A stretch of DNA of 64,000 nucleotides from an uncultured Muribaculaceae bacterium. GTDB lineage: Bacteria; Pseudomonadota; Alphaproteobacteria; Rs-D84. The notes beneath the pieces were generated by a model, which saw only the letters and a list, made by a program, of their open reading frames with translations, did not search any database and was not told the DNA's origin. Made by a program: the position numbers and the translations under genes. The DNA is taken from positions 6,676 through 70,675 of the forward strand of contig CAZPLT010000002.1 in assembly GCA_964587855.1 (NCBI GenBank). The letters run 5' to 3'. Positions 41,714 through 64,000 of this stretch are shown in pieces. How positions within the stretch are numbered: position 1 is the first letter of the stretch; every line of letters starts with the position of its first letter.

Positions 41714-42469
41714 ATGAAAAGATATTTAATTTGTTTATGTTCTCTGTTGGTCACTGTTCCGGTAATTGCCGCGCAAACTAACAGGACCAAACCAGCTAAT
41801 TACGACGAGGAACGTGTCGGGACCAAGGGGAATGTGACAACGGCACACCAAGTCCGTGTGGGAACGACTTCGTCCTCGTCAACAACATCTGTGACGTCAT
41901 CGACATCAAGTCAGGTTGATACGCGTGAAGAGGAAAAAGAAGCCTGTACAAGTCGTAACTCGGGCGCAGGCAATACTTTTGTTTGGGCGTCTAAAACAAA
42001 TAGTAGCAACTATGAATCAATGGTTGAAGATACTGAAAAACCAAAAAACAACGCTTGCTTTGTTCGTGTGACGTTAAAATCTAAAAACCCAAAAATTCAA
42101 ATTGAGGAATCTTCCAAATACTTTGTGATAGGGGAACAAGAGACTTGCGGCAGTTGGGAAAAAGAAGAAGATATAAAGCAACAGATCCTTGATTCTAAGA
42201 AAAGTGGTCTAGTCGGCGGAACAATCGCTGGCGCTGTTGGTGGTGCCGTGTTGGGCGTAGGCGCTATGGAATTGTTTGGAAACAAGGCAATTGGTGGCAA
42301 AGTTCAGGGACAAAAAGCTTTGTCTGACGAACAATTACTGCGTTCTCAGATGTTGGCAGCAGGCAAGGAAGATGAATGGAAAAAATACGAAGAATCAAAA
42401 AAAGAAAGGTCTAGTCTTTGCGAGGAGCTGCATGCCCTTGGGGGTAAAGCACCAGAATGTGACGAATAA
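41714..42469 (+). CDS. Secreted Ser/Thr-rich hypothetical protein
   Basis: Signal peptide, Ser-rich low-complexity N-terminal region, Gly-rich segment. No family recognised. Confidence 0.65.
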   Translation: MKRYLICLCSLLVTVPVIAAQTNRTKPANYDEERVGTKGNVTTAHQVRVGTTSSSSTTSVTSSTSSQVDTREEEKEACTSRNSGAGNTFVWASKTNSSNYESMVEDTEKPKNNACFVRVTLKSKNPKIQIEESSKYFVIGEQETCGSWEKEEDIKQQILDSKKSGLVGGTIAGAVGGAVLGVGAMELFGNKAIGGKVQGQKALSDEQLLRSQMLAAGKEDEWKKYEESKKERSSLCEELHALGGKAPECDE

Positions 42470-43798: not shown

Positions 43799-46480
43799 AT
43801 GTCTGAAATTAATGAAGTTTCCCCAGAAATCAAAGTTCCAATCAGTGTTCTTGAACAAGAAATGCGTGGCAGTTTTTTGAACTATGCAATGTCGGTTATT
43901 GTTGATCGCGCTTTGCCCGATGTTCGTGATGGTTGTAAACCTGTGCATCGTCGTATTTTGTATGTTATGAACGATGTAGCGCCTGCAACGCGTGCAACTG
44001 TAAAATGCGCCCGTATCGTTGGTGATGTTATGGGTAAATACCATCCCCATGGCGACAGCAGTATTTATGACGCGATGGTTCGTATGGGTCAGGATTTTTC
44101 TATGGGTGCATGCTTGGTCCAGGGTCAGGGAAATTTCGGCAGTATGGACGGGGATAAACCCGCCGCTATGCGTTATACCGAAGCAAGATTATCTAAACTG
44201 GGCGGGTCATTAATGGACGATATGGACAAAGATACCATTGAATGGATGCCTAATTTTGACGATACTTTGAAAGAGCCACAGGTTTTACCCGCGAAATTTC
44301 CAAATTTCTTGGTAAATGGCGGCAGTGGAATTGCGGTTGGTATGGCGACAAATGTGCCAACTTATAATTTGGGCGAGGTTTGTGATGGTGTTTTGGCTAT
44401 ATTAAACAATGCCGAAATTACAGATGAAGAATTATTTGGAATTATTCAGGGGCCAGATTTCCCAACGGGCGGGATTATGATGGGGCGTGGCGGCGCATTC
44501 AAAGCGCACACAACTGGCCGCGGCAGTGTGATTGTTCGTGCAAAAACTCATGTCGAGGATATGAAAGAAAAGCAAGCAATCATAGTTGATGAAATTCCTT
44601 ATCAAGTAAATAAAGCTCAGTTGATTATAAAAATTGTAGAGCTGTCCAAAGAAAAACGTATCGAAGGGCTTGGTGAAATTCGTGATGAAACCAGCAAAGA
44701 AGGCGTGCGTATAGTTATCGAATTAAAGCGTGATGCAATTGCTGATGTTGTTCTGAATCAATTATTTCAATACACAGAATTACAAAGCAGTTTCCCAGTA
44801 AATATGATGGCGTTAAATCATGGCCGTCCAATGTTATTTAATGTTCGTGGTGTGTTGGATGCTTTTATTGATTTTCGTATAGATGTTATTCGCCGCAGAA
44901 CTATATTTGAATTAAACAAGGCACGTAATAAAGCACATACTTTATTGGGCTTGTCAGTTGCGGTTGGAAATCTTGATGAAATTATTGCTTTGATAAAAGG
45001 CAGTGAATCGCCCGAGGCAGCACGTCAGGCATTGATATCTCGCAGTTGGAAAGCATCAGATATAGAAAGCTATATCAGATTGATTGATGATCCAAATACC
45101 GAATATGAAAATGGTATGTTCCGTATGAGCGAAGATCAAGCAAAAGCCATCTTGGAATTACAATTACATCGCTTGACCGGATTAGAACGTGAAAAAATTC
45201 ATAATGACTTGGTAGAACTTGGTGCAATTATCAAAGAATTGTTGGATATTTTGGGCAGTTACGAAAGAATTATACAAATTATTCGCGATGAAACATCTGC
45301 GGTTCGTGATAACTGGTCGGTTCCACGCAGAACAATAATTTCTGACGCCGAAGTTGATATGGATATAGAAGATTTAATAGCACGCGAAGATATGGTTGTA
45401 ACAGTTTCAAACACTGGATATATCAAACGTGTTGCGCTGGATACTTACCGCGCACAAAAACGCGGGGGTAAGGGTCGCAATGCAATGACCACCAAAGAAG
45501 ACGATTATGTATCTCAATTATTCGTTGCAAATACTCATACTCCATTGATGTTTTTCAGCAGCAAGGGTATGTGTTATCGCTTGAAAACTTATAAATTACC
45601 AGAATCGGCCGCCAGTGCCAAGGGTCGTCCATTGGTGAATTTATTACCATTGTCTGCGGGTGAAACAATCACGGCAATTTTACCAGTGCCAGAATCTGAA
45701 ACTGGAACATTTTTGATGTTCGCAACCAGCATGGGAACGATTCGCAGAAATGATTTTTCAGACTTTGAAAGCATACGTGCAAACGGAAAAATTGCGATGA
45801 AGTTGGAAGATGGCGAAAGCCTGGTCAGTGTTATGTTGTGCAATGAAAACCAAGATGTATTTTTAAGCACTTATCGTGGTCGCTGCATCAGATTCCCAGT
45901 AAATGAAATTCGCGTATTCCAAAGCAGAAATTCAACCGGTGTTCGCGCAATCAAATTGGGCAAAGACGACAAAATTATCGGTATGGCAATGCTGAATCAT
46001 TCAGACGCTGACGCGGAAACACGCGCAGCATATATCAAGCAAAGCCGCGCGCTGCGCCGCGCAGACGGAGTGGAAGAAGAAGCTGGCGACGAAGAAGAAA
46101 CAACCAGTATTGTTTTGGGCGAAGCAACGATGGCGGATATGGCGCGCGATGAACAATTTATTTTGACCATCAGTGAAAATGGATTTGGGAAACGCACCAG
46201 TTCGTATGAATATCGTTTGACCCATCGTGGCGGTTCGGGTATTACCGCAATTAAACTGGGCGGAAAAAATACAGCGGTCGCGGGCAGCTTCCCAATTGAT
46301 AATGGTCATGATATTATGATGGTGACGGACGGCGGCAAAATTATCAGAACGCCAGCGGACGCGGTTCGTATCGCGGGTCGTTCCACAGCGGGTGTAACAT
46401 TGTTAAAAACAGCTGAAAAAGAACGCGTCATCAGCACCACAGCAATTGAAAAAGAAGAAGTAATTGAAAACGAGGAATAA
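43799..46480 (+). CDS. gyrA: DNA gyrase subunit A
   Basis: 893 aa with GyrA N-terminal breakage-reunion domain (active-site region AMRYTEARL) and C-terminal beta-pinwheel repeats. Confidence 0.97.
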
Positions 46481-46484
46481 TAAT

Positions 46485-47336
46485 ATGTCAGATAATAATT
46501 CAGTAGCTTTAATAGGTAATTTTGATTCGTGTTCTCATATTGATGATGAGGTGGAATACTGGTTTGCTCGAGATTTACAAAAACTCCTTGGGTATGAAAA
46601 GTGGGATAAATTTACAAATATAATAGACAAGGCTAAATTAGCTTGTAAAAACAGTGAGTTATCAGTATTAGACCATTTTCTCCAAGTGGGGAAAATGGTT
46701 GTGATAGGTTCTAGCACTAACAGAGAGATTGAAGATTATAAATTAACAAGATATGCGTGTTATTTAATAGCACAAAATGGAGATTCTGCAAAAAGAGAGG
46801 TAGCCTTTGCTCAAACTTATTTCGCTGTTCAGACCAGGAAACAAGAGATAATTGAACAAAGAATGGCAGAATATGAGAGATTGGCGGCACGTGTAAAATT
46901 ATCTGAGACAGAGAAAGAGCTTGGTTCTTTATCATATGAGCGTGGTGTAGATAGTAGGGGGTTTGCTATTATTCGTAGTAGGGGCGATCAAGCATTATTT
47001 GGCGGATATAATACCAGCAATATGAAGCAACGGCTTGGGATAAATAATGAATCTAGGCCATTAGCGGATTTTTTACCGGCAGTTACCATAAAAGCGAAAG
47101 ATTTAGCTACAGAAATGACAAATCATAAGTTAAAAAATTCTAATTTAAGTGGTTCTGATAAAATCTCTGACGAACATGTAAAAAATAATGCTAGTGTTAG
47201 AAAAGCTCTTACAGATAGCGAAATTTACCCAGAGAAATTGCCACCAGCGGAAGATATAAAAAAAGTTGAAAGTAAAATAAAACGAGAAGAGAAACAAATA
47301 GCTTTATCAAAGACTAAAAAAATTACTAAAAACTAA
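46485..47336 (+). CDS. dinD: DNA-damage-inducible protein D homolog
   Basis: Blocks matching E. coli DinD: RYACYLIAQNGD, AQTYFAVQTRKQE, ALFGGY. The start is taken at MSDNNS. Confidence 0.75.
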   Translation: MSDNNSVALIGNFDSCSHIDDEVEYWFARDLQKLLGYEKWDKFTNIIDKAKLACKNSELSVLDHFLQVGKMVVIGSSTNREIEDYKLTRYACYLIAQNGDSAKREVAFAQTYFAVQTRKQEIIEQRMAEYERLAARVKLSETEKELGSLSYERGVDSRGFAIIRSRGDQALFGGYNTSNMKQRLGINNESRPLADFLPAVTIKAKDLATEMTNHKLKNSNLSGSDKISDEHVKNNASVRKALTDSEIYPEKLPPAEDIKKVESKIKREEKQIALSKTKKITKN

Positions 47337-47388
47337 GTTATATTATATGATTTTAATTTATTAAACACATAGAAACTTAAGGCGTAAT

Positions 47389-47625
47389 ATGTATGAAATA
47401 ATAAAAGATAAAGAATCGGGGCTTTATAGGATAATCAGTGAAATAGAACCACTTGATAAAGAAAACGAAGAGGTGGTTTTATTAAATTCTATGCCCAAAG
47501 CAAGTGTTGTTTCCTTAATTTCGGACGAATTTCGCACGATGATAGATTCTGGATTATGTGATGAAAATTATCGGGATTTTAAGGATAAAATAAGTTTTAT
47601 AAAAACGATAACTTTGGATTTATAA
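47389..47625 (+). CDS. Hypothetical 78-aa protein
   Basis: ORF between dinD and the DpnI-like gene; no similarity recognised. Confidence 0.4.
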   Translation: MYEIIKDKESGLYRIISEIEPLDKENEEVVLLNSMPKASVVSLISDEFRTMIDSGLCDENYRDFKDKISFIKTITLDL

Positions 47626-47626
47626 A

Positions 47627-48397
47627 ATGGAGATAATACCAAGTTTTGATTTAAGTATGGCATGTTGTTACAAAAGCGAATCACAAAAAATTCGGGTTAT
47701 GTCGGAACATTGGGTAAAAGAAAATGCGTTTTGCCCAAATTGCGGTGAAATATTAGAAAAATATCAAAATAATAAACCTGTTGCGGATTTCTTTTGCCCT
47801 AATTGTGGTGAAGATTATGAGTTAAAAAGTAAATCAGGCACATTCGGCGTAAAAGTTTTAGATGGCGCATATAATACTATGATAGAAAGAATAAATAGTA
47901 TTAAGAATCCGAACTTTATGATTATGAATTATTCAGAGTGTTCTATTAGAAATTTTATGGTAATTCCAAAACATTTTTTTACAGATGATATAATAGAAAA
48001 AAGAAAGCCATTATCAGATACTGCACGCAGAGCAGGATGGATTGGTTGTAATATCTTGCTAAATAAAATCCCAAATAGCGGAAAAGTATTTTTTATTAAA
48101 GATTCTGAATTTATTGGAAAAACTGAAATTATAACGGAATATAATAAGGTCAAATTTCTTCAAAATGAATATCAAAAGAAAAGGGGCTGGTTAATAGATA
48201 TTATTGGATTTATAGAAAAACTCAATCAAAAGACATTCAAACTATAAGATATGTATAAATTTGAAAAGGAATTGTATTTAAAACATCCATCTAATAACAA
48301 TATAAAACCTAAAATTAGGCAACAATTACAATATTTAAGAGATAAGGGATATTTGACATTTGATGGCAATGGAACTTATACTACGATAAATAACTAG
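47627..48397 (+). pseudogene. dpnI: DpnI-like methyl-directed restriction endonuclease gene, interrupted by an in-frame TAA at 48245-48247
   Basis: Residues 1-206 align with DpnI (YKSESQKIRVMSEHWV..FCPNCGE, KPVADFFCPNCGEDYELKSKSG, DGAYNTMIERI, RKPLSDTARRAGWIGCNIL). The next 49 codons in the same frame encode the DpnI C-terminal winged-helix segment (DMYKFEKEL..IRQQLQYLRDKGYLTFDGNG). A TAA stop sits where DpnI has Glu. Confidence 0.8.
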
Positions 48398-49615: not shown

Positions 49616-49974
49616 TTACATAACATGAGAAGATAATTTATTTCTTAGTATTGCCATTTCACGATATTTGTCTTCAGTAAAAAGTATGTTCCAAAAAATA
49701 TTTGTTTTTGTATTTTCTGAACAATTTTGATGTTTTTTTATCAATTCTAATAAAGGAGGAACATTTATATTTTGTTCGGCTAAGGTACCAAGTTCATTAT
49801 CTGACATAAACGGATTTTTCGCCAATCCCATTAAAATTTCATAATTAGTAGAGCCTAAAAAAGTTAAACGTTGCTCTTTGTCCGCGGTTGTCATTGCTTG
49901 TTCTTTCAAATCCTTATATAAAGGATTTCCTTTGTTATTCTTATTAATACTACAATTAAGAATACTACTCATTT
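49616..49974 (-). CDS. Hypothetical protein
   Basis: ORF from the track (149 aa). The start is more plausibly the internal Met (MSSILNCS). No similarity recognised. Confidence 0.4.
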
Positions 49975-50580
49975 TTTTCACCTTTGATTTGTATCGGTCC
50001 TTTTTGGTCAAAAACAAAGGCCGAAGAATATAAATAGTAGAATAGACAAAGCTAACTTTCAACAAATTTATAAATTTGTCGAAAAATCGTTTAAAATCAA
50101 TTAAATAAAATGAAATTTATAAACCAATGTGGCAGAAAAAGACTCGTCTGTGCAATCTATAAGTGGGGAAGGTTGGTTTGTATTCATTTTTTTTGATCGC
50201 ATACGAAAGTTACAAAGATAAATCTTGGTAAAAATTATAGCCCAAATATAAAGAATATTCCTTTTCAGAAATTTTCTTTTTATATGTATCCCCAGGATAT
50301 GGCGTGCTGTAAAAAGTCCTTAGATCTTCGAATCCAACCCCAATATAAAAATTAGTATATTTTGAATGGTAAGTATAACTGGCAGAATAACCCAGCAAGT
50401 TTTTATCTTGATACGATTGCTCGGTATCATAGTATTTGTATAAAGGCATAAATTTCAGAATATGTCTTTTATATAAATATAATCTAATCTCTCTCCTTTT
50501 TTCCAGTTGTAATTATACATTAATTTTTAATATAAAGAAATTGATTTATTTCCTAGAACAAAAGGCAGATTAAAAAGTTT

Positions 50581-51046: not shown

Positions 51047-51667
51047 CTACAAATGATGCGTTAATAAGCTTGTATGAAATGCTCCCATTTGTTTTTTAAA
51101 CTCTGTTAGCATTTTTTTGTAATTTTGTTCTGTTGATTCAATTATTGTTCTGCTGTTATTTGTTATAATATCCATACGAAAATCATTTACTCTTGAAACA
51201 GCCGTAATATTATGCGTTTTTTCTAAATTTTCAGAAGCTCCTTCTAGAACAACACAAAGCTTTTGTATCTCTTGAATAGTTTTTAAAACGTTTTGGGTGA
51301 TAAGCTCCGCACCTATGCTGCCACCGTATTCACGAATATCATAAAATCTTTCACAAAACGCATATGTTTCCTTAATAGCAGTTTTATAAGTAGGCTGGAC
51401 AAGTTCCTTGACACCTTGTAATAATACAGGATCTTGTTTGTGAAGTATCATGTTTGAATTCACTTGCTTTGCTGATACTAATGCTGTATTCATTTTTTCG
51501 GCATCTGATTTTATCAGATCCAGCATATTTGATTCTTTTTTGTAAAGTCCAGTTGATGAAAAACGTAATAAAAAATTGATTATAGTTTTATAATCAGAGT
51601 GATATCTGCCATTAATATTTTTAAGTAGAGTCATCAGAATATCCTTTTTGGCTATTCTCTCTTCCAT
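51047..51667 (-). CDS. Hypothetical protein
   Basis: 206-aa ORF; no similarity recognised. Its start overlaps the end of the upstream IMPase-like gene. Confidence 0.5.
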   Translation of the reverse strand: MEERIAKKDILMTLLKNINGRYHSDYKTIINFLLRFSSTGLYKKESNMLDLIKSDAEKMNTALVSAKQVNSNMILHKQDPVLLQGVKELVQPTYKTAIKETYAFCERFYDIREYGGSIGAELITQNVLKTIQEIQKLCVVLEGASENLEKTHNITAVSRVNDFRMDIITNNSRTIIESTEQNYKKMLTEFKKQMGAFHTSLLTHHL

Positions 51668-52688: not shown

Positions 52689-53213
52689 TTAATATCCGCC
52701 GACACAACCCAGGTAAAAATTACCCGAAGATTCTATAAAGTTTTGGAATTTACCAGTATTTTTTCCAGAAAACAGGGCCAAAACAGTTCCGGATTCGGTT
52801 GCCAGCATATCAGCTATACTTACGCCAAAGCTGGATACTTTCTTGAAAAATCCAGGGGTTGGAAAGATTTCTGCAACAAAAAGTTTGTTTTGATCTTTGT
52901 TTTCGTTTATTTGATCTTTGGCGATCGCCATCAAAGTGCAATCTTTGGTCAGGATGATTTTTTCGCAAACTTGAGCTTGTCCACCCAATAATTCTCCCCA
53001 CCAGCCAGGTACACCAGAAAACACAGGATAATAGAGAATAGCGTCAGGAGTGGTCTTGAAAAATTCAACCATATCGAAATCTGTGGGTGTCAAACAAGGC
53101 ATTTCCCCATGACGATCTGAAATAATCCGTCTGGCCGATTGATAGGTGTCCGAATCGCGGGTCCCTCTGGTGGGCCAGAATAAAAACGGGGAACGTATGG
53201 TTTTATAAGTCAT
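52689..53213 (-). CDS. Conserved hypothetical protein
   Basis: 174-aa ORF; no confident family assignment. Confidence 0.5.
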   Translation of the reverse strand: MTYKTIRSPFLFWPTRGTRDSDTYQSARRIISDRHGEMPCLTPTDFDMVEFFKTTPDAILYYPVFSGVPGWWGELLGGQAQVCEKIILTKDCTLMAIAKDQINENKDQNKLFVAEIFPTPGFFKKVSSFGVSIADMLATESGTVLALFSGKNTGKFQNFIESSGNFYLGCVGGY

Positions 53214-53279: not shown

Positions 53280-54623
53280 TTAGTCCTTCTTTATATTTTT
53301 CCACCAAGCTTTAACATTACTGGTTATTTTACTGAAATCTTTCTTTGCATCATCATAAAGCTTGGATGGTATTTTGACGTCACTGAACAAAGCCTGAGTT
53401 AATGCTGGTATAGCATTCATAAAGATTGCCAAGAATAATCCCATCATTATAATTGTTACCAGACTATCATTATTCATAAACAGGCCATCTATTAAAATTT
53501 CAGCCTTGTTTTCAATTATTGCAGTTTGTAAAACACTGGCGCCTTGCCATTTACCAAAAGCCGAATTCAAGAATAACACTGAAAATGCAGTAAATATCCC
53601 AACCATTGCGATACCCAATGTATTTTGAACCACTTTATCAATAATACCCTTGATATTCTTTTTCCCATCTGGCAGCACCATCCATGTTTTTCCATCCGCA
53701 TCTTGGAACAGCCATGCCAGTAACATTAACGGCAACATAACCAGTCCCATCCCTAATTCTATGAAAGTTTGTAAGAAATAAAGTGGGATTGGCAGCAGGG
53801 CAAAGAAAAATAAAACGACAATTAAAAGCCCAGCTAAAAACATAACTACATTCGGAAAAATTGGAATGTTAAATATCAGCTTGTACATATATTTATCGTT
53901 AAATGCCATATTCATAATTGTCCAACCCGCTGTCATTCCCAGACCGGTCATTTGATGGACTTGACCTATTTGGCATGCCAGATTATGGCGAAGTTTTGGT
54001 GAAAATGCGCCGTTTTTAGATGCTGCTTTATCCGCACTAGAAGGATCCATAACAGCGGTTGCAATCAGGCAAGTTTCAAAAGAATTTTCATTATTTACAT
54101 CTGGGGCCATTCTTACATCCACCGAATGAGAAAGTGCCAATCCAACATTAAAGATAGGTTCTACGGCTGTGCTGGTTATAAACCTGGGCAATGGGAACGC
54201 TAATAACAGTGTTATAAAAGTAAGTTTAAATAAATGTGTTCCCAGTTTTCCAGAAAAATTCCATGCATCAGGAGATTTTGGTTCCCCGTCTATTCCTAGA
54301 TACCCCTTTAATACTTCCCAACCAAAATATACAGCAGTCAGGGCAAAAGCTATCGGAATACAAACCTGACCAATAGCTGAATAAATACGTGGTAAAACAT
54401 CTGATAAAACCAATATTATATCATTAAACATCCCACATGACCAACAACTGGAAAAGAAAGATAGAGCATCTGCCATATCAACAGGTGACATAGAGCGATA
54501 AATGGAAAATCCAGCAATTGTTACGCCACCAGCAATTGCGCCTATTGCGAGTGGAGCAATTGCCCCTGCGGAAAATGGCAAGAAAGAAAGAAAGATAATC
54601 CAAAAATTTTTTAGTTTGTTCAC
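53280..54623 (-). CDS. Large polytopic membrane protein, member 1 of a five-gene array (VirB6/TrbL-like?)
   Basis: 447 aa. Signal-peptide-like N-terminus, at least 6 TM segments, a central loop, and a K-rich C-terminal tail. It is transcribed divergently from the four following genes. Confidence 0.75.
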   Translation of the reverse strand: MNKLKNFWIIFLSFLPFSAGAIAPLAIGAIAGGVTIAGFSIYRSMSPVDMADALSFFSSCWSCGMFNDIILVLSDVLPRIYSAIGQVCIPIAFALTAVYFGWEVLKGYLGIDGEPKSPDAWNFSGKLGTHLFKLTFITLLLAFPLPRFITSTAVEPIFNVGLALSHSVDVRMAPDVNNENSFETCLIATAVMDPSSADKAASKNGAFSPKLRHNLACQIGQVHQMTGLGMTAGWTIMNMAFNDKYMYKLIFNIPIFPNVVMFLAGLLIVVLFFFALLPIPLYFLQTFIELGMGLVMLPLMLLAWLFQDADGKTWMVLPDGKKNIKGIIDKVVQNTLGIAMVGIFTAFSVLFLNSAFGKWQGASVLQTAIIENKAEILIDGLFMNNDSLVTIIMMGLFLAIFMNAIPALTQALFSDVKIPSKLYDDAKKDFSKITSNVKAWWKNIKKD

Positions 54624-54675
54624 AGACTAATTATATCATAATTTGCCCAGGCTTTTTATGCTATAATACAAAGAA

Positions 54676-55938
54676 GTGAGAAAAGTACTTTTATCTTTAT
54701 TATTTTTAATTCTTCCATGTGCAGCTTATGCCTCATGGGGTATTGTTGATTCATTGGATCTTTCCCCATTTATTCCGATAATTTTAGATGCTTTTGTATC
54801 TGTTGCTATGGCTACTTATGAATTTTTTGTGGGCAATGGGGACGGGATAATTTATATCTTGGTTTGGGGTTGGTTGGGCTGGTTTATTGGAATGTATTTG
54901 GTAAAAATGTATATTCCGCAAAGTTGGCTGGATTTTTTTAATGCCAAGGGTGGACAAATGTGGGATAAACCTTCTGCACTTAAGATTTCTGAAGATGTAT
55001 TAAAACCATGTATTCGGGGTATAATTGCAGCAGCATTATTACTGCCAATCAAACCACAATATATTACCGGTATAATCGTAGATCCTTTTCTGCAATTTGG
55101 GGAAATTTATACACAAAGTATGTCATCAAGTATCAACCAGATGAATGTATCAGCGGGTGTTTCAGAAGAAAGCATTGCTTGCCCCCCCGATTTAATCGAA
55201 AAAGGATATATTTCAGAAGACGGGTGCAAATTCTTAATTCGTCCAGTTGCTCAAATAACACACGCAAATAATCAAGTTATCAAACGTGGATTGAAATTTA
55301 TAACCGATGGGTTATTGGGGTTGATGACTCTGATACCACATGGGGGTCGTGATATTATGAATTTGATAACTGGTATATTTTTGGTATTTACTTTTGTAGC
55401 CAGTAATTTCTTTATGGCGCTTTTAATAATCCAGGCGATTTTTGAATTTGGAATGGCTTTGATAATGTACCCATTCAAAGTTTTAATGTTTGTTGCGGAT
55501 AAAAATGCCAAGGGTTGGGTTAACCCATGGCCAGCATTCAGTCAGATAATAGAAAGCTTGAAAAAACTAGTAATAACTATGATTGCTTGTGTGTTTATTT
55601 TGGTTATAAATATTGCCGCAATCAAGGCTTTGTTTAATTTTAATCATTCAACATTTGTTGTGGCTGCTGGTGGTTCTGCGTCCAGCAATGTCCCAGTTGT
55701 TGCAAATACTCCGATGGGCTTTGGTGGGCATTCTGTAATTTGGATGTCATCTGTTTTGACATTCTTTTTAATGTTTAAAATTTTTGAAATAACTAAAAAA
55801 CAGTTGCTGGATTATACAGGCAAGGGTTCAGATAGTTTGTATAACAAAGCTGTTGGCGATACTAAAAATGCATGGAAAAAAACAAATGAGTGGCGCAAAG
55901 GTATTAATAAAGCTATGGGATGGTTTAAAAAGAAATGA
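54676..55938 (+). CDS. Large polytopic membrane protein, member 2 of the array (VirB6/TrbL-like?)
   Basis: 420 aa. Signal peptide, a Cys-containing periplasmic loop, a cluster of TM helices, and a K-rich tail (KNAWKKTNEWRKGINKAMGWFKKK). Confidence 0.8.
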   Translation: MRKVLLSLLFLILPCAAYASWGIVDSLDLSPFIPIILDAFVSVAMATYEFFVGNGDGIIYILVWGWLGWFIGMYLVKMYIPQSWLDFFNAKGGQMWDKPSALKISEDVLKPCIRGIIAAALLLPIKPQYITGIIVDPFLQFGEIYTQSMSSSINQMNVSAGVSEESIACPPDLIEKGYISEDGCKFLIRPVAQITHANNQVIKRGLKFITDGLLGLMTLIPHGGRDIMNLITGIFLVFTFVASNFFMALLIIQAIFEFGMALIMYPFKVLMFVADKNAKGWVNPWPAFSQIIESLKKLVITMIACVFILVINIAAIKALFNFNHSTFVVAAGGSASSNVPVVANTPMGFGGHSVIWMSSVLTFFLMFKIFEITKKQLLDYTGKGSDSLYNKAVGDTKNAWKKTNEWRKGINKAMGWFKKK

Positions 55939-57137
55939 ACGGACTGATCGAATCTTCGGTGCAATGTTGGAGCTGTCCTGTATTTGACCGTTTGTTCCAA
56001 GTTATTTCTGCCACCACCAGCGCTGTTTACGGAAAGATGTCGTTATTGGCTGCAGTTTTATTATGTGTTTTTGTTGCTTTTTATATTTTGTATTCGGTTG
56101 TAACAAACTTGCGCGCAAAAGATAAAATGGAACCGATGTATCAATCTTATTTGAAACCAGTAATAATAAATTCTTTATTCGTAATTACTATTTTGGGATT
56201 GGGTGTTATGGTTCCCAGGTTGGTAACCAGACTCAGTTTTGAACCTGTGGCGGATATGACGCTGGTTTATACCCAATCAATGTTAAATACAAATCCAGAT
56301 CAAGTTGCGCAAAAGGTAGTATATACCCCAGAAAAAATGTCCGAAGATGGATTTTATCGTCCCGAGTTACGCGACAAAATAATTTTATTGATGAAGACCA
56401 GTATTACCCAATTTCAATCAATGATGAAACTGGGTATGGCAATAATGGACAAGGCATTTGAATGGAAAGCACTTTTGGGAGTTGGTGCGCTGGTAAAACA
56501 TATTATGATATTTTTTATGGGGTTGTATGTTGTTTGGGCGTTTTTTAAATTGTTTATAAAGTTTTGTTTTTATTTTGCTGATGTTGTAATTGATATGACT
56601 TTTTTTGCCTTTTTCTTTCCATTTATGACTGTTTTGTGGGTGTTTAAAAATTCTAAAAGCGCGGATTGGGTAAAAAATATGAGCAGTAAAATAACACCTG
56701 CATTTTTCCAAAATTTAATAAACTCTATCGTTTCATTAGCAACAGTTGTTATAACTTATGTTGTAATTATGGTTATAATTACAAAGTTCTTTGCTGGACC
56801 AAATATTGATGTCACAGAAGTAATGAATGGAAATATATTGGCCAGTGATATATCAGATGATAATTTGGCTATGGTTTCTTTGGGTGGAGTTTTAGTATTG
56901 GTTTATATTGTTGGATACTTATCAGAAAATATTAAACAAGTTGCCAAAGCAATTACAGATGCGTTTAATATAACTGAAAGAACTGAAGTCGGCGAAAAAC
57001 TTGGTGAAGATGCATTAAAGGTTGGAAAAAACACATTTGATTTTGCAAAAAATACTGGAAAAACTCTTTGGACTGCGATCACTGGTAAAGATACCGATAA
57101 AAAAGATGGTGAAAAAGAAGATAAAAAAGAAAAATAG
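55935..57137 (+). CDS. Large polytopic membrane protein, member 3 of the array
   Basis: 400 aa and multi-TM. Its start overlaps the previous stop (ATGA). The C-terminal tail is K/E/D-rich (KDTDKKDGEKEDKKEK). Confidence 0.8.
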   Translation: MNGLIESSVQCWSCPVFDRLFQVISATTSAVYGKMSLLAAVLLCVFVAFYILYSVVTNLRAKDKMEPMYQSYLKPVIINSLFVITILGLGVMVPRLVTRLSFEPVADMTLVYTQSMLNTNPDQVAQKVVYTPEKMSEDGFYRPELRDKIILLMKTSITQFQSMMKLGMAIMDKAFEWKALLGVGALVKHIMIFFMGLYVVWAFFKLFIKFCFYFADVVIDMTFFAFFFPFMTVLWVFKNSKSADWVKNMSSKITPAFFQNLINSIVSLATVVITYVVIMVIITKFFAGPNIDVTEVMNGNILASDISDDNLAMVSLGGVLVLVYIVGYLSENIKQVAKAITDAFNITERTEVGEKLGEDALKVGKNTFDFAKNTGKTLWTAITGKDTDKKDGEKEDKKEK

Positions 57138-57140
57138 TTT

Positions 57141-58595
57141 ATGTGGAAATCTAAAATAATTTTAATGGCCGTCAAAGCGATAATGTGGATTATCGCCATT
57201 GGTATTGGAATTTGGTATTTGTCATCCAGTATAAATGGTGATTCTATTACATACGCCAGTATGAACAGTTTTCTGCACGCAACCGGTGCTTGCCATGGCG
57301 ATGTGTGTGATATATCACAAAGTAATGGTTGCTTTTTGTGTCCTTATGTTACCCAATTGTTCAATGTAATTGGTATGGCGACAAAAAGCTTTTGGGATGC
57401 GTTGGTTGCCAATCTATGGATTTTAATTGCGATGGGATTTGTAATTTTTATGTTGAGACATACCTGGAAGAAATTGGCTGAAGCCAACAAAGAAAATATT
57501 AAAATGACCACCAAGTCCAGAGATTTTAATTTCAAGGATTGGTTTGATCCAATATGGAAACAATTTGCCAGGGTTTTATTTGTAGGTGCATTTTTGGGTG
57601 CATTAAGTTTTGGTGGAACAACAGTTTTAAAAACTGTATCAGATATTACAATCCGCCCAGTTATGTATGTTGGATCTGAACTTGCCATGGCTGCAACGGG
57701 CATAGGTTCTGATGCAATGTGTCCAGCGTTGGAAACTCAAAATTCAGATAATGTGATTGGTCCAGCATTAAAACCATTTATGTGTATTGTTGGCAATGCC
57801 AGCAGTGTTATTTTAGCTGGGGCGTCTGGTGGATTTTCTTTGATGAATTTCGCATGGATGGGAATGGGGGGTGGCTTGTTTACTTGGTTGGCTGGATTGG
57901 GCTTGGTAATAATGTTTTTAATTATCGGATTTGGTTTGTTTTTTGATATTTTAAATGTCGTCTTCAGATTGGTATTTATAATTATATTCCTGCCCGTTAT
58001 TATTGCCAGTTATGCATATGAAAATGGCGTGTTAAAGGGTGCAGTGGGCAAATCGGTTGATATGCTTGTAAATTGTGCGGTCAGGGTAATTGTAATTACG
58101 TTGAAAGTTCTAATAATTTATACAATCGTTGCATATGCTGCGGATGAATATTTCCCGGGGCCTGTGGATGGGTATTCTGTAATTACTCCACCTGGATTTG
58201 CAGGAATGCAATCGGCGCAAAATTCATCAAATAAAATTGTAGCCCAAGTATTTTCAGATTGTGAAAAAGTATCTGTTCAAGATGGCAAAATGAATAAAGA
58301 TTTATTCAAAGCATGTTTTGACCGCACCAGTGCAACCATTGAAGCATCGCACCCAGGGGCGTTTGACTTTATGCGTAATGGTTGGGACTTTCTTATGATT
58401 ATGTTGGGAATATTTCTGTTATATTTTTATGTTATCAGTAAAAAATTGGATGAAGTTTTTGTTGGTGATGGTGCAGGCAAAGATCCAATATTTAATATAG
58501 GAAACTCGTTCAAAGAAATGGGGCAAAAGTTATGGAGTATTCCATCGGGAATAACCAAGATGATTACAGATGCTATGGAAAAAGGAAGTAAATAA
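57141..58595 (+). CDS. Large polytopic membrane protein, member 4 of the array
   Basis: 484 aa and multi-TM with a Cys-containing loop. It starts 3 nt after the previous stop. Confidence 0.8.
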   Translation: MWKSKIILMAVKAIMWIIAIGIGIWYLSSSINGDSITYASMNSFLHATGACHGDVCDISQSNGCFLCPYVTQLFNVIGMATKSFWDALVANLWILIAMGFVIFMLRHTWKKLAEANKENIKMTTKSRDFNFKDWFDPIWKQFARVLFVGAFLGALSFGGTTVLKTVSDITIRPVMYVGSELAMAATGIGSDAMCPALETQNSDNVIGPALKPFMCIVGNASSVILAGASGGFSLMNFAWMGMGGGLFTWLAGLGLVIMFLIIGFGLFFDILNVVFRLVFIIIFLPVIIASYAYENGVLKGAVGKSVDMLVNCAVRVIVITLKVLIIYTIVAYAADEYFPGPVDGYSVITPPGFAGMQSAQNSSNKIVAQVFSDCEKVSVQDGKMNKDLFKACFDRTSATIEASHPGAFDFMRNGWDFLMIMLGIFLLYFYVISKKLDEVFVGDGAGKDPIFNIGNSFKEMGQKLWSIPSGITKMITDAMEKGSK

Positions 58596-58601
58596 TAAAA
58601 T

Positions 58602-59882
58602 ATGAATTTATTTAAATTAAATCTTAAAAAAATAAAGATATTTTGCAAATTTGCTTTGGTTGCTTTTTGTTTGTTTTTTGTTTCTCCGGTAAGTGCAGCT
58701 GGCAATGTTCCAAATGGTGGGGATATTTCTGATTATGGTGTTTGGGCAACGGAACACAATAGACAGCTTTTGTTAGATAGCTTGTCTTCGGACGTAAGTT
58801 CGTTTTATAAACCCATAGTTGATGATTATGTTCCAGTAGAGGCACGAGTTGGTAAAGTACTGATTGATGCATTAGATAAAGTTGGGGAATCTTTACAACG
58901 CAGTTTGTTTAATTTTATTCAAATATTTCTGGGTGTTTTGTTGGCTTTTTGGTTAATGCTTGAAGCATATAATTTAATTAAATCCAAGGGCGATGTAAAG
59001 AAAACCACAATGGAAATAGTTAAAAAAACTGTATTGGTATCAATTTGGATTTGGGTTTTAAATAATGATCCCGGACAGATTTTTATGACTATATTTGGGC
59101 CTATAATTAAAGTTGGCAGTTATACATCTGATTTAATTTTGAACTCGGTTGTTTCAGAAGCAGGCAAAATTAATTTGCCAGATACCTGTGGGGCTATACA
59201 TAATTTTGTTGGCGGTAATGGTTATACTGCGGATTTGATTTGTATGCCGACACGTTTGTCTGGATTTTTTTATACTTGTATTACGGCTGGATTTAAATGG
59301 ATGTGGGCCGGCTTGGGCCACAGTGCGCTGACCTTTGTTGCGGGTGCTGTGTTTGTGGTTATGTTTACTATAAATTTATGGAAATTTGCATTATTGGCAT
59401 TGGGGGTAATCGTTGATTTATTCTTGGCAATTATCTTATTGCCATTTACCGCGGTCAAGGAATGTTTTGGTAAAGGCACCAGTTTACAAGGGGTTGTGGG
59501 TAATATATTTAATGCTTTTGCGGGGCTTTTCAAAGCTGTCAGTTTGAATGATCAAATAATGCGTTTTATCAAGGCAGTTATTTACTTTATAGTATTATCT
59601 GTAATGGCGGCAATTGGCGCGGCGTTACTCGGTGGGGTGGTTAATGCTGATTTATCTTCGGTAACACCATCTGTTGAAAGTGATAGCTTTATGTCCGTTT
59701 TAATAGTTGGTTGTTTGGTGTCGTATTTGGTTTCTCAATCAGCAAAATTGGCCGAGAATTTAGGCGGCAAGATAGATGGCTCGTTTGGTGAAAAAGTTCA
59801 AGGGGATATTAAAAATCTTTGGGATAAAACAAAAAAGCAAGTTATGGATTGGCGAAAAATTTATAAAGAATCAAAAAAGTAA
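58602..59882 (+). CDS. Large polytopic membrane protein, member 5 of the array
   Basis: 426 aa. Signal peptide, multi-TM, K-rich tail. It starts 6 nt after the previous stop. Confidence 0.8.
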   Translation: MNLFKLNLKKIKIFCKFALVAFCLFFVSPVSAAGNVPNGGDISDYGVWATEHNRQLLLDSLSSDVSSFYKPIVDDYVPVEARVGKVLIDALDKVGESLQRSLFNFIQIFLGVLLAFWLMLEAYNLIKSKGDVKKTTMEIVKKTVLVSIWIWVLNNDPGQIFMTIFGPIIKVGSYTSDLILNSVVSEAGKINLPDTCGAIHNFVGGNGYTADLICMPTRLSGFFYTCITAGFKWMWAGLGHSALTFVAGAVFVVMFTINLWKFALLALGVIVDLFLAIILLPFTAVKECFGKGTSLQGVVGNIFNAFAGLFKAVSLNDQIMRFIKAVIYFIVLSVMAAIGAALLGGVVNADLSSVTPSVESDSFMSVLIVGCLVSYLVSQSAKLAENLGGKIDGSFGEKVQGDIKNLWDKTKKQVMDWRKIYKESKK

Positions 59883-59935: not shown

Positions 59936-61012
59936 ATGTTATCAATGATGTTATCTAACTTGGGTTATGAGATGGGCAGTGGTTTATCTTTTGCCTGTGG
60001 CTTTCTGGTCGCTTTATTTATAATGTTGGTATTCGGGCGAAAATATATAAACGCTATGGTTCGTTTACAAAAAAAGGGACAACCAATCAGTGAAAATGTT
60101 CCACAATCTCATTTGGCCAAAGCAGGAACACCAACAATTGGCGGTGGGTTATTATTATTGGCCATTATTATATCCAGTTTTTTATTTATGGATTTTGCAA
60201 ATCCAACCCCTTGGATTGCGATTGGCGCACTGATTTGGTTTGGTGTAATTGGATTTGCAGATGATTATAAAAAGGTAACCAGCCAAAGCAAAAAAGCCTC
60301 CAATGGTTTATCGGCAAAAATGCGTCTTTTATTAGAAGGTTTGGGGGTTATTGCTTTGGCATATTGTGCGAATGCTGTAATGCCTTTCTATTTACCATCT
60401 TATTCTGTTGCTTTCCCAGGGGGCTATGTTTTTCCAATTGGAATTTTGTATTTTGGTTTTGCTTATTTTGTAATTGCTGGAACCGCAAATGCTGCAAATA
60501 TAACTGATGGTTTAGATGGAATGTTATCAAAAATATATCTGCCAATATTGATTGTTTTGTTGGTTGCTTTGTTTGGTGCAACACGTGTTGGATTTATTCC
60601 ATATTCTTTATTGTTGCCAGAAGCCGTGGGATTATTCCCTGTGTTGGGCGCAGCATTTGGTGCGCTGGTTGGATTTTTATGGTTTAATTCAGCGCCAGCA
60701 CAGATTTTTATGGGCGATACTGGCAGTTTGGCATTGGGCGGATTTGTTGGAACAATATCAATGTTGTTAAAAGTCGAGATTGTAATTGGTATTGCCAGTT
60801 TGATGATGGTTGCGATTTTAGCATCCAGTTTTATTCAAATATTTGTTTATAAATTAACCAAAAAAAATGGAGTGGGCAAGCGTGTATTCTTGCGTGCGCC
60901 ATTACATCATCATTTTGAAGAAAAGGGTTTGCCAGAATCAAAAATCGTAGAAAGATTTTTCATAATGTCGATTTTGTTCAGTGGTGTGGCTCTGTTGCTG
61001 TTAAGGTTATAA
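59936..61012 (+). CDS. mraY: Phospho-N-acetylmuramoyl-pentapeptide transferase
   Basis: GFADDYKKV and PLHHHFE motifs; 358 aa. Confidence 0.95.
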   Translation: MLSMMLSNLGYEMGSGLSFACGFLVALFIMLVFGRKYINAMVRLQKKGQPISENVPQSHLAKAGTPTIGGGLLLLAIIISSFLFMDFANPTPWIAIGALIWFGVIGFADDYKKVTSQSKKASNGLSAKMRLLLEGLGVIALAYCANAVMPFYLPSYSVAFPGGYVFPIGILYFGFAYFVIAGTANAANITDGLDGMLSKIYLPILIVLLVALFGATRVGFIPYSLLLPEAVGLFPVLGAAFGALVGFLWFNSAPAQIFMGDTGSLALGGFVGTISMLLKVEIVIGIASLMMVAILASSFIQIFVYKLTKKNGVGKRVFLRAPLHHHFEEKGLPESKIVERFFIMSILFSGVALLLLRL

Positions 61013-61013
61013 A

Positions 61014-62159
61014 ATGATAAAACGTGGTGAAGAAAGTACTTTGACCAGCTGGTATTTTGAAATAGACAGGCGTTTATTCTGGTGTGTGTTAATAATGTTT
61101 GTTGTAGGTTTGTGGGCGATGGTATCTGCCGGCAGTGTTGCGGCCGAGCGTCTTAATCCCCCCCAGCCATGGCATTTCTTTTTGATAAAGGCAATACCTC
61201 TGTACATAATTGGTTTAATAACTTTGATGGTTTCATCTTTTTTAAATCGTCGTCAAATAATGATTGTCAGTGTATTAAATGTATTGGTTTGTGGATTACT
61301 TTTGATTGCGACATTAATTATGCCGGCAGCGGTCAAGGGTTCTGCTAGATGGGTTGATTTAGGTTTCGCATCTGTTATGCCTAGTGATTTATTAAAGCCT
61401 GGCTTTATAATTATAACTGCTTGGTTTTTAACCAGGCTTGAAAAATTGGCACCTGGGGATATATTTTTTTCAAAACGGGTTTGGAAATGGGACGGGTGGC
61501 CAGTTTATTTATCAGCATTTCTACCGATGTTGATTATTATTTTAACTCACCCTGACTTTGGTTCTTTTACTCTTTATTCATTGGTATTTTGTGTAATGAT
61601 ATTTTTGGCAGGGCTGCCCATGTACTTTATACCTGTTTTAATAGGATTGGGATTTGGTGCTGGTGTGTTTGCATTTTTTACTATGGCTCACGTTAGATTG
61701 CGTATATTGGGATTTCTGGGACTAGCGGGTGGTGGTGATAATTACCAAATCAGAAAATCGGTCGAGGCAGTTCAACATGGCGGTCTGTTTGGTCGCGCCG
61801 AAGATAGTTTTATAAAGCAATCATTGCCTGATGCACATACAGACTTTGTGTTTTCAGCCATAGCAGAAGACTCTGGCGCAATAATTGCATGTATCTTATT
61901 ACTGGGATTTTTATATATATTAAAACGTTTGGCAGCAAACGCGATGAGCGCCAAAGATAAAATGGTATTTTATGCATGTGGTGGAATGATGGCTTTGTTT
62001 GGTGCCCAGGTATGTATTAATATAATGTCAACATTGGGATTATTCCCACCAAAGGGAATGACTTTACCGTTTATTTCATATGGGGGGTCTTCCTTCGTTG
62101 CTTTTTGTCTAGCATTTGGTATGATTATTGCATTGGTTCGTGAAGATAAGTGGAAATAG
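61014..62159 (+). CDS. ftsW: Peptidoglycan glycosyltransferase FtsW (SEDS family)
   Basis: 381-aa SEDS membrane protein positioned between mraY and murG. Confidence 0.9.
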   Translation: MIKRGEESTLTSWYFEIDRRLFWCVLIMFVVGLWAMVSAGSVAAERLNPPQPWHFFLIKAIPLYIIGLITLMVSSFLNRRQIMIVSVLNVLVCGLLLIATLIMPAAVKGSARWVDLGFASVMPSDLLKPGFIIITAWFLTRLEKLAPGDIFFSKRVWKWDGWPVYLSAFLPMLIIILTHPDFGSFTLYSLVFCVMIFLAGLPMYFIPVLIGLGFGAGVFAFFTMAHVRLRILGFLGLAGGGDNYQIRKSVEAVQHGGLFGRAEDSFIKQSLPDAHTDFVFSAIAEDSGAIIACILLLGFLYILKRLAANAMSAKDKMVFYACGGMMALFGAQVCINIMSTLGLFPPKGMTLPFISYGGSSFVAFCLAFGMIIALVREDKWK

Positions 62160-62175
62160 ATATAAACAGAGGTAA

Positions 62176-63234
62176 GTGATGAAAATTTGGATAGCAACCG
62201 GTGGAACCGGTGGACATATTTTTCCAGCAATCAGTGTTGCTGAAGAATTAGTGCGTCGTCATCATCGTGTTATTATTTCCAGTGATGGCCGCGGAATGCC
62301 AATTGTTAAAAAGAGCAAGCCTTTACGTTCTGGATCTGCTTTTATTTGGGCATCGGGGGTCGGTGCAAAATCAAAAATTCAACAAATTGTTGCGTTGTTT
62401 AAAATTGCTGTTTCCGCATTTGTAATGACTTTGCGTTTTATAATTTTTAAACCAACGCGTGTAGTTGCGTTTGGTGGATATTCGTCTGTGCCGGTGGTGT
62501 TTGCCGCCAGAATATGGAAAATACCGACATTATTACATGAACAAAATGCTCACATTGGTCGTGCTAATTTATTTGCTCTGCGCTGGATTGATAAATTGAT
62601 GACCAGTTTTCCAAATGTAAAGGGTATTCCAGAATCCAAGGTAAAAATTATTTATACTGGATTACCAGTACGCAGGGAATTCTTAATAGAAAAAGAGTAT
62701 AATCAAACAACAAATGAAAATCGTTTATTGGTTACGGGTGGCAGTTTAGGAGCACAAATTATAGATGAGGTTGTCCCTGATGCGATTATGAATTTACCAA
62801 TGACGTTTCGTAAAAAATTATTTATAACACAACAGACAAGACCTGAAAATGTTGCGCGCCTGCAAAGGTTTTATGCTAGTAATGGAATCAAGGCTAATGT
62901 AGTCAGCTTTATAAATGATATGGCGGATGCATTAGGCTCGGCAGAATTGATAATCAGTCGTGGTGGTGCCAGCACTATCGCAGAAATGCAAGCCATGGGT
63001 CGTCCAGCAATTATTGTTCCATTGGGAATAAATCCTGATCAGATTGCAAATGCAGAAGCTTTCGCGATAACTGGTGGGGCAATCGCAATCGAGCAAAAAA
63101 AGTTCACGGCAAAATGGCTGTCCGCAACGCTAGAAGAATTATTTGAAAATCCAGCCAGATTAAAAAAAATGGCGGACAAGGCGAAAATCCCAAACAAAGC
63201 CGTTGAAAATATAGTCAAAGAAATTTTGTTATAA
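62176..63234 (+). CDS. murG: UDP-GlcNAc:undecaprenyl-PP-MurNAc-pentapeptide GlcNAc transferase
   Basis: N-terminal GGTGGHIFPA motif; 352 aa. Confidence 0.95.
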   Translation: MMKIWIATGGTGGHIFPAISVAEELVRRHHRVIISSDGRGMPIVKKSKPLRSGSAFIWASGVGAKSKIQQIVALFKIAVSAFVMTLRFIIFKPTRVVAFGGYSSVPVVFAARIWKIPTLLHEQNAHIGRANLFALRWIDKLMTSFPNVKGIPESKVKIIYTGLPVRREFLIEKEYNQTTNENRLLVTGGSLGAQIIDEVVPDAIMNLPMTFRKKLFITQQTRPENVARLQRFYASNGIKANVVSFINDMADALGSAELIISRGGASTIAEMQAMGRPAIIVPLGINPDQIANAEAFAITGGAIAIEQKKFTAKWLSATLEELFENPARLKKMADKAKIPNKAVENIVKEILL

Positions 63235-63289: not shown

Positions 63290-63745
63290 ATGAAAATGAT
63301 ACAAAAAGAATTTATAAATATTATTGAACAAAATATGGTTGTTTTAGCCTGGTTGTCGGATACTTTGAAAAGACCGACCAATGTTTTATTACGCCGTCCC
63401 AGACAACAACTGGAAATTTTAGTTCGTTTACATTTGGGTGGTCGTTCCAAATTAAAAGATATTGCTGCACGTGAATATACGCCTGCTTCAAATTTGTGTT
63501 CGGTGTTTCGTATACTGGAACAAGAGGGCTTTGTAAAACGTGAAATTGATAAAGATGACCGTCGCAATACCTGGTATTCTGTTACATCAAGTGGTACAAA
63601 ATTGGCACGAAAAACCATAGATGCTTTTCGTAGACGTGTAGCGGAACTTTTTTCTGAAATATCGGATGAAGACGAAAAGAAATTAACAGAGGCACTTAAA
63701 AGTATGAATGTTATCTTAAATAAAATAAAACAGGAAAAAATATGA
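63290..63745 (+). CDS. MarR family transcriptional regulator
   Basis: Winged-helix MarR signature (..LEQEGFVKREIDKDDRRNTWYSVTSSG). Confidence 0.8.
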   Translation: MKMIQKEFINIIEQNMVVLAWLSDTLKRPTNVLLRRPRQQLEILVRLHLGGRSKLKDIAAREYTPASNLCSVFRILEQEGFVKREIDKDDRRNTWYSVTSSGTKLARKTIDAFRRRVAELFSEISDEDEKKLTEALKSMNVILNKIKQEKI

Positions 63746-64000
63746 AAAAAATAGCGATATTATTATCTTTGGTTATAGTTAGTTTTATGCAAAATGCGTT
63801 TGCTCGTGATTTATCTTTCAATGATGCAGTGAATATGATTTTGGTTGAATCCAATGATTTAAAAAAAGCGGATGCAAATGTAAAAAAGGTCCAGGCTCAA
63901 TTAGCTGCTGTAAATTCTAATCGTTGGTTTCATATCGATGGTACAGCAACTTATATGAATCTGGTAAATGTTAAAGATCCCAGTAATCCAAATGGTGTTG
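63742..64000 (+). CDS. TolC-like outer membrane efflux protein (5-prime part; continues beyond window)
   Basis: Signal peptide followed by OEP-family N-terminal repeat-like sequence. It overlaps the marR stop. Confidence 0.6.
   Translation, partial: MKKIAILLSLVIVSFMQNAFARDLSFNDAVNMILVESNDLKKADANVKKVQAQLAAVNSNRWFHIDGTATYMNLVNVKDPSNPNGV

Follow-up and report, generated by a model that had tools for sequence, protein, structure and literature searches.

The window analysed here, a 64-kb stretch of DNA from contig CAZPLT010000002.1, originates from an alphaproteobacterium of the Rs-D84 or Candidatus Enterousia kind with a genome of <1 Mb and contains an array of five closely spaced genes, termed paralogs A to E, whose products are, as judged by sequence comparison, distant paralogs of one another. 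Highly diverged and compact as they are, the five proteins are members of VirB6/TrbL, which provides the first functional annotation of these 'hypothetical' genes, which are among the best conserved ones of the order Rs-D84. VirB6 (TrwI of plasmid R388, DotA in Legionella) is an inner-membrane-anchored subunit of type IV machines, and in those solved so far five copies of it form a central periplasmic stalk or protochannel. The paralogy of A–E, the fold of A and B, the remote homology to TrbL, the conservation throughout the order, the recurrence of the number five in other lineages and the presence of the coupling protein VirD4 are reported below as findings. Beyond these, it appears fairly probable to us that A–E constitute a heteropentameric stalk of the VirB6 type, within an rvh-like type IV secretion or translocation system of Rs-D84 whose genes are scattered over the genome.

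Five distant paralogs in a compact array

A preliminary description of the window had listed five consecutive open reading frames (ORFs), the lengths and positions of which (Table 1) all hold, as does the spacing that it gave. On the window sequence, B and C overlap in ATGA (-4 nt), C and D are separated by 3 nt and D and E by 6 nt, and A is transcribed divergently from B–E. The spacer between A and B is presumably the control region of both transcription units. It carries the extended -10-like sequence TGcTATAAT 7 nt upstream of the GTG start of B (window 54655-54678), a placement that would imply a leaderless or near-leaderless B transcript or, alternatively, a misplaced B start codon.

All-against-all comparison, as had been proposed, revealed mutual similarity among the five proteins. 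In BLASTP, A and C are the closest pair (1e-13), followed by C–D (1e-6), B–E (1e-5), B–C (1e-5) and D–E (1e-4), at pairwise identities of 18-29%. Comparison of family alignments built from 73-80 orthologs per paralog by hhalign gave probabilities of 98% for A–C, 94% for B–E, 92% for A–E, 90% for C–D, 85% for D–E and 81% for A–D, with alignments that usually span 250-350 columns. Gene F, located directly downstream of A, is unrelated to A–E.

Hydropathy points to a common plan of N-terminal hydrophobic segments, a hydrophilic loop of ~85-135 amino acids (aa), a cluster of hydrophobic helices and a K/E-rich tail. The shared architecture proposed at the outset thereby stands in its outline and requires correction for C, which has no signal-peptide-like N-terminus and no cysteine in the loop; the loops of A, B, D and E contain 2-3 cysteines each. 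Equally, the hydrophobic helices are present as described, but not all of them need be membrane-embedded transmembrane helices, as in the solved VirB6 most hydrophobic helices build the periplasmic stalk (PMC12857230). Family consensuses have in common a (E/N/T/G)P..(F/V) segment, a segment composed of a hydrophobic helix, (L/F/Y)P(L/F), five residues and an aromatic residue, and an amphipathic helix at the C-terminus that includes a conserved Trp. Paired loop cysteines appear in the family consensuses of A, B, D and E. Among the five paralogs CxxC is restricted to A, C and D, and the motif CW[ST]C..F is found in A, C, D and at least 90% of the distant relatives.

Assignment to the VirB6 superfamily

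All homologs of the array proteins in a 5.8 billion-sequence database carry the label 'hypothetical'. When 1.84 billion representatives were searched exhaustively by HMMER for the A-family profile, only 247 relatives were recovered; their E-values refer to a library of 1.84e9 proteins. Among 60 distant relatives of the A family, 23 match Pfam TrbL (PF04610) with a best E-value of 1.2e-8, in a region that aligns with residues ~225-345 of A; a Peptidase_M23 domain is present in 8 and a VgrG3-like hydrolase domain in 2 of the same 60 proteins. Sub-threshold matches to TrbL or VirB6 (PRK13852) sit on the segment aligned with LPLMLLAWLF of A.

Structure prediction leads to the same family. AlphaFold2 models were built for A, with a predicted local distance difference test (pLDDT) of 70 and a predicted template modelling score (pTM) of 0.62, and for B (pLDDT 67.6), selected as the paralog with the weakest links to the others. 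Foldseek places chains of TrwI at ranks 1-4, and according to these models A and B have the VirB6 fold as in TrwI of R388. By modelled fold and transitive homology, and not by direct sequence membership, the array family thus belongs to the VirB6 superfamily, which supports the initial guess of a VirB6/TrbL-like paralog expansion of the rvhB6a-e kind.

VirB6 has an essential conserved Trp in a segment between membrane and cytoplasm (PMC2653234). In A, W304 within LPLMLLAWLF is invariant, and its surroundings may be equivalent to the region of the essential Trp of Agrobacterium VirB6. The C protein of the window has Trp at this site in LWVF, where it is a minority residue in the C-family consensus.

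Several results speak against the assignment. A–E, as had been remarked on first inspection, match no Pfam or NCBIfam model, and the suggested direct comparison with PF04610 failed for the five proteins themselves: scans at E<=1 returned no TrbL or VirB6 match and only noise. Neither the A family nor the 60 distant homologs gave anything meaningful in profile searches of PDB sequences, and a tblastn search of plasmids with a distant homolog yielded just a single weak TrbL match. An hhalign comparison of the A family with the plasmid TrbL of Erythrobacter (WP_115418074) reached a probability of 3% at E 0.013 and is not significant, although the aligned segment is the homologous one. The confidence of the AlphaFold2 models is only moderate (pLDDT 68-70), and B, D and E carry F, Y or C where A has W304, so that the conserved Trp is absent from them. 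An unrelated polytopic transporter family, with a likeness to TrwI that reflects the generic resemblance of helical membrane proteins, would be in line with the missing Pfam, NCBIfam and PDB-sequence matches, with the weak Foldseek E-values (0.013 at best) and with the moderate model confidence. We regard such a family as very improbable, since DotA, another solved VirB6, also ranks third or fourth in Foldseek and the TrbL matches of the remote homologs fall into the homologous region.

Conservation of the array in Rs-D84

One genome per GTDB species was scanned, which identified 285 genomes with an A homolog, derived from human, livestock, rodent, bird and termite guts; 80 loci were retrieved for the analysis of gene order. 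The host genomes belong to the order Rs-D84 of GTDB, or Candidatus Enterousia, and not to the classical Rickettsiales, although NCBI labels some of them 'Rickettsiales bacterium'. Rs-D84 comprises uncultured gut Alphaproteobacteria with genomes of ~0.7-1.0 Mb that are devoid of most biosynthesis, respiration and standard transporters (PMC12306168). Some array-bearing genomes are titled 'uncultured Muribaculaceae bacterium' or 'Lachnospiraceae bacterium OttesenSCG-928-E19' (L007, L008, L012, L020, L076; P0323, P0482), which are probably taxonomic mislabels or contaminated bins.

The gene order E-D-C-B, followed divergently by A-F-(rpmE)-inositol monophosphatase, is retained in 80/80 retrieved loci. 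All six genes A–F are present in the 75 species genomes with an uncut contig, and the five loci with a missing gene end at contig ends. The median gap between B and A is 50 bp (80 genomes), and the median B/C, C/D and D/E gaps are -4, -1 and -1 nt (76-78 genomes). Median identity across the order amounts to 45-54% for A–E compared with 57% for FtsW, 61% for MurG and 64% for MraY, which, as far as sequence conservation can tell, indicates that A–E are subject to purifying selection, much as essential envelope genes are.

Gene F accompanies the array in 79/80 loci, with its sole absence at a contig end, at a median distance of 68 bp from A. The invariant motifs of its product are GWWGE and MLAT. 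The gene is confined to Rs-D84, and all 574 homologs are 'hypothetical'; searches of Pfam, NCBIfam and PDB sequences gave no match.

The position of the array immediately upstream of mraY, in the place of murF, had also been pointed out. It holds for the window, where mraY starts at 59936 downstream of E, but the murF position is not conserved and is specific to one clade. In this clade mraY-ftsW-murG (window 59936-63234) follow just after E with no murF in between. In most Rs-D84 genomes the three genes are located on the opposite side, after the inositol monophosphatase gene, and a functional link of the array to mraY or the murF position was rejected because most genomes have the dcw genes across the cluster. 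At that location mraY-ftsW-murG are accompanied by a gene for a class A penicillin-binding protein (PBP) and a MliC-like gene (L004; compare loci L006-L085). Throughout Rs-D84, mraY-ftsW-murG or PBP genes are never more than a few kb away from the array, on one side or the other.

Recurrence of five paralogs in other lineages

Arrays of larger VirB6-like paralogs are found in further uncultured alphaproteobacterial lineages (Table 1), equally among housekeeping genes. Exactly five tandem family members each are present in L086, L087, L089, L090 and L091, whereas L092 has only four recognisable members; five tandem paralogs thus characterize 6/7 lineages examined. Each gene of the L086 array has its counterpart at the same position in L087. 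The D type stands at position 4 in Rs-D84, L086, L087 and L090, with D and the fourth gene of the latter three as reciprocal best hits. At least some of the paralogs, and their order, are therefore older than these lineages. A fusion of the last paralog to a Peptidase_M23 domain is found in L091 and L092. The arrays of the other lineages are often preceded by an ORF of 86-91 aa with two predicted transmembrane segments and by a large divergent ORF without family match; the small ORFs (55-91 aa) and large divergent ORFs beside these arrays gave no Pfam signal, VirB3 included.

Search for a type IV secretion system and identification of VirD4

The search for virB3, virB4, virB8-virB11 and virD4 that had been recommended for these genomes was successful for virD4 and for none of the others in the window or the loci searched. 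With Agrobacterium VirB1-11 and VirD4 as tblastn queries against 1.83 Mb (window and array loci) and 1.04 Mb around VirD4, only VirD4 was recovered. The VirD4 coupling ATPase of the Enterousia locus L072 possesses an intact GTGKT Walker A and DE Walker B and is encoded 1 kb beyond the inositol monophosphatase gene, next to the array cluster. Orthologs with 58-86% identity are present in 126 metagenome stretches (loci L095-L174) and in none of the ORFs of the 64-kb window. Two VirD4 contigs also carry the array, 32-34 kb apart, namely Ga0082212_10000107 (L009/L119) and Ga0123353_10000169 (L010/L150). A third VirD4 contig, Ga0209800_10000040 (L160, 355,004 bp), appears from its matching size and Joint Genome Institute (JGI) source to be the contig of P0275, a B ortholog 86% identical to B of the window. 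VirD4 always lies among genes with a housekeeping appearance; it is neighboured by IF-2, the family of which is confirmed by Pfam, and by look-alikes of RsmE, RluB, NusA and ThrRS named from sequence reading only. By its sequence features and distribution, VirD4 is a genuine type IV coupling protein and a conserved chromosomal gene of Rs-D84. A gene for a 408-aa lipoprotein is located directly downstream of VirD4 in 36 loci.

Large Walker-A ORFs near the arrays were considered as type IV secretion ATPases and turned out to be IF-2, PNPase, MutS, MgsA and UvrD. No type IV secretion family was identified among the window ORFs of >=150 aa.

The gene content around the arrays counts against a dispersed type IV system. 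VirB4, VirB8-11, VirB2, VirB3 and VirB5 were not found in the 64-kb window, in the 10 kb around the 80 Rs-D84 arrays and the 7 arrays of other lineages, or in the 10 kb around 80 VirD4 loci; the early caveat that no virB3 or virB4 lies upstream is borne out, as neither adjoins the array in any locus. Canonical and rvh systems, on the other hand, keep virB6 beside virB3-virB4 (PMC2653234). The search inspected ~40-60 kb per genome, and a complete machine is therefore no more than a proposal.

As VirB4 was not observed in these stretches, a second possibility stays a live, if unlikely, option, namely an orphan VirB6-derived envelope complex without a VirB4-type ATPase, which would serve as a contact or uptake channel or as a structure associated with the cell envelope or peptidoglycan, with VirD4 acting alone or directly together with the array. 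A published survey of Rs-D84 metabolism speaks of 'hypothetical membrane-bound proteins' but of no secretion system (PMC12306168), and nothing on secretion systems in Enterousia or Rs-D84 was found in the literature. The missing VirB4, VirB11 and VirB8-10 near 87 arrays and 80 VirD4 loci, the housekeeping surroundings of the arrays in all lineages, the constant proximity of the Rs-D84 array to mraY-ftsW-murG or PBP genes and the fusion of the M23 peptidoglycan peptidase to the last paralog in other lineages would equally agree with such a complex. Against it, we know of no VirB6 or VirD4 protein that functions without VirB4, and just the stretches of each genome mentioned above were inspected. 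Furthermore, Rickettsiales likewise scatter their type IV genes in islets (PMC2653234), and peptidoglycan hydrolases are normal accessories of type IV secretion (PMC12857230).

Comparison with known VirB6 proteins

The nearest known relatives of the array are TrwI/VirB6 in fold, the Pfam TrbL family in remote sequence similarity and the RvhB6a-e arrays in organisation. TrwI, the VirB6 of plasmid R388 (PDB 7o3v, 8rtd; PF04610), resembles the array proteins as a hydrophobic multi-helix protein with, apparently, a common conserved 'P...W.F' segment after the central helices; its pentameric state parallels the five genes of the array, and PF04610 is matched by remote relatives. VirB6 proteins, however, have a length of ~260-300 aa versus 400-484 aa here, where extra N-terminal segments, the CW[ST]C motif and K/E-rich tails are added and a direct model match is lacking. 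Moreover, five distinct genes are found instead of one, in a chromosomal housekeeping context outside a virB or trb operon.

The rvh system shares with the array the tandem arrangement of 4-5 extremely diverged VirB6 paralogs (~80% divergence) in host-dependent Alphaproteobacteria with reduced genomes, and its type IV genes are equally dispersed ('archipelago', islets) with VirD4 present (PMC2653234). In contrast, RvhB6 proteins of 668-1154 aa have large extensions and are annotated as TrbL/VirB6 (PMC2653234), so that the array proteins are indeed shorter than RvhB6, as had been cautioned. The rvh array follows virB3-virB4 and its virD4 follows virB8-11, and neither linkage was found here. The rvh systems also have duplicated RvhB4, RvhB8 and RvhB9, are without VirB5 and reside in Rickettsiales, whereas the present host is Rs-D84. 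DotA of the Legionella Dot/Icm system (PDB 9ngy) differs with its 857 residues in the solved chain 9ngy_FP1, its type IVB affiliation and its pairing with the VirB5-like IcmX; no IcmX/VirB5-like gene was seen here.

Proposed role of the array

Both VirB6 (TrwI) and DotA occupy the centre of their machines as pentamers (PMC12857230). In combination with five co-transcribed paralogs that are never lost, this makes a heteropentamer the simplest reading of the array. B–E would be made by translational coupling, and A and F would be expressed from the divergent promoter region. The five products would insert into the inner membrane and, with one copy each, may assemble in a 1:1:1:1:1 ratio into a VirB6-type stalk or protochannel, to which the VirD4 hexamer would deliver substrates. 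The cargo would likely be effectors, DNA or other macromolecules that pass between the bacterium and the partner cells on which it depends. The M23 peptidase fusions in sister lineages would fit a structure that crosses the peptidoglycan. Weighed against this proposal must be that the heteropentamer is suggested by gene number, operon structure and analogy.

Each paralog might, alternatively, form its own homopentameric stalk for different partners, cargos or conditions. A review on Rickettsia calls homogeneous complexes with one paralog at a time possible for RvhB6 (PMC8035066), the motifs differ among the paralogs, with CxxC confined to A, C and D and the conserved Trp to A and C, and A is transcribed apart from B–E. 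However, the overlapping or abutting genes B–E (-4, 3 and 6 nt in the window and equally narrow medians across the order) indicate coupled and equimolar expression, no paralog has been lost in any genome, the fixed number of five recurs in six lineages, and genomes of <1 Mb are unlikely to retain five alternative channels. Operon coupling and the fixed number five thus disfavour separate homopentamers, which we consider improbable, and we retain the heteropentameric stalk as the preferred reading.

Coordinates and further contents of the window

Table 1. Positions of the array genes, their neighbours and related loci (coordinates refer to the window unless a locus is given)
Feature	Position	Strand	Characteristics
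Paralog A	53280-54623	(-)	447 aa; VirB6-like; CWSC at residues 60-63; invariant Trp304 in LPLMLLAWLF
Paralog B	54676-55938	(+)	420 aa; VirB6-like; GTG start; signal-peptide-like N-terminus; without CxxC
Paralog C	55935-57137	(+)	400 aa; closest paralog of A; begins at CWSC motif
Paralog D	57141-58595	(+)	484 aa; CFLC motif and extra Cys-rich insert; 'position 4' type
Paralog E	58602-59882	(+)	426 aa; least conserved of A–E; signal-peptide-like N-terminus
Gene F	52689-53213	(-)	174 aa; soluble; directly downstream of A
Divergent A/B intergenic region	54624-54675		52 bp, AT-rich
L086 array	L086:6361-17362		770, 781, 857, 474, 650 aa
L087 array	L087:7780-16835		640, 648, 405, 457, 763 aa
Further arrays of larger VirB6-like paralogs	L088; L089:7982-18271; L090:10001-17797; L091:1931-11879; L092:3474-14247
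VirD4 coupling ATPase	L072:3999-6260	(-)	753 aa; T4SS-DNA_transf 2.2e-50, TraG-D_C, TrwB_AAD_bind

Between gyrA and the array, the window encodes a Bro-N domain protein (46464-47336) and a DpnI-type methyl-directed restriction endonuclease (47627-48247; PF06044, 4e-77), and this segment (46464-48247) may represent a small defence or mobile segment inserted into a core region. In a pooled Pfam scan of positions 400-37080, a large serine recombinase (Resolvase and Recombinase) and a NERD nuclease-related protein were identified in an otherwise housekeeping context (LptD/F/G, ParA/ParB, GidB, IF-3, AccB/C and a BamB-like protein). No Pfam match was obtained for the ORFs at 40360-41655 (431 aa), 41714-42469 (251 aa), 51047-51667 (206 aa) and 49616-50065 (149 aa), and for the 431-, 251- and 206-aa ORFs an NCBIfam match is absent as well. 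The 431-aa ORF contains two CxxC motifs, and the 206-aa ORF has orthologs in only 3/80 loci.

Secretion genes were also sought beyond the 3' end of the window, where a MarR-OEP-RND efflux operon is located instead. It consists of a MarR regulator, a TolC-like OEP, a 187-aa ORF and a 999-aa RND (ACR_tran) pump (63290-64000; L175:1462-7134), in a genome reported to lack most transporters.

Significance

The possession of several VirB6 copies has so far counted as a hallmark of the rvh system of Rickettsiales, and what they are for is a recognised open question (PMC8035066, PMC11077975). In the present case this supposed Rickettsiales signature is encountered outside the Rickettsiales, stripped down to proteins of ~400-480 aa without extensions, in a widespread gut order and in further lineages, and the recurring number of five makes a heteropentamer with one paralog per position directly testable. 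As a tentative and rather unlikely extension, Rs-D84 and several other uncultured alphaproteobacterial lineages with reduced genomes might possess a minimal translocon, a VirB6-derived heteropentamer driven directly by a VirD4-type ATPase without VirB4 or an outer-membrane core. If true, this translocon would be essential to obtain or exchange macromolecules with partner cells and would equally offer the simplest natural explanation of the 4-5 VirB6 paralogs retained by Rickettsiales. The presence of VirD4, on its part, shows that the partner-dependent Rs-D84 carry translocation machinery of the type IV kind and provides a lead to their cell-cell interaction.

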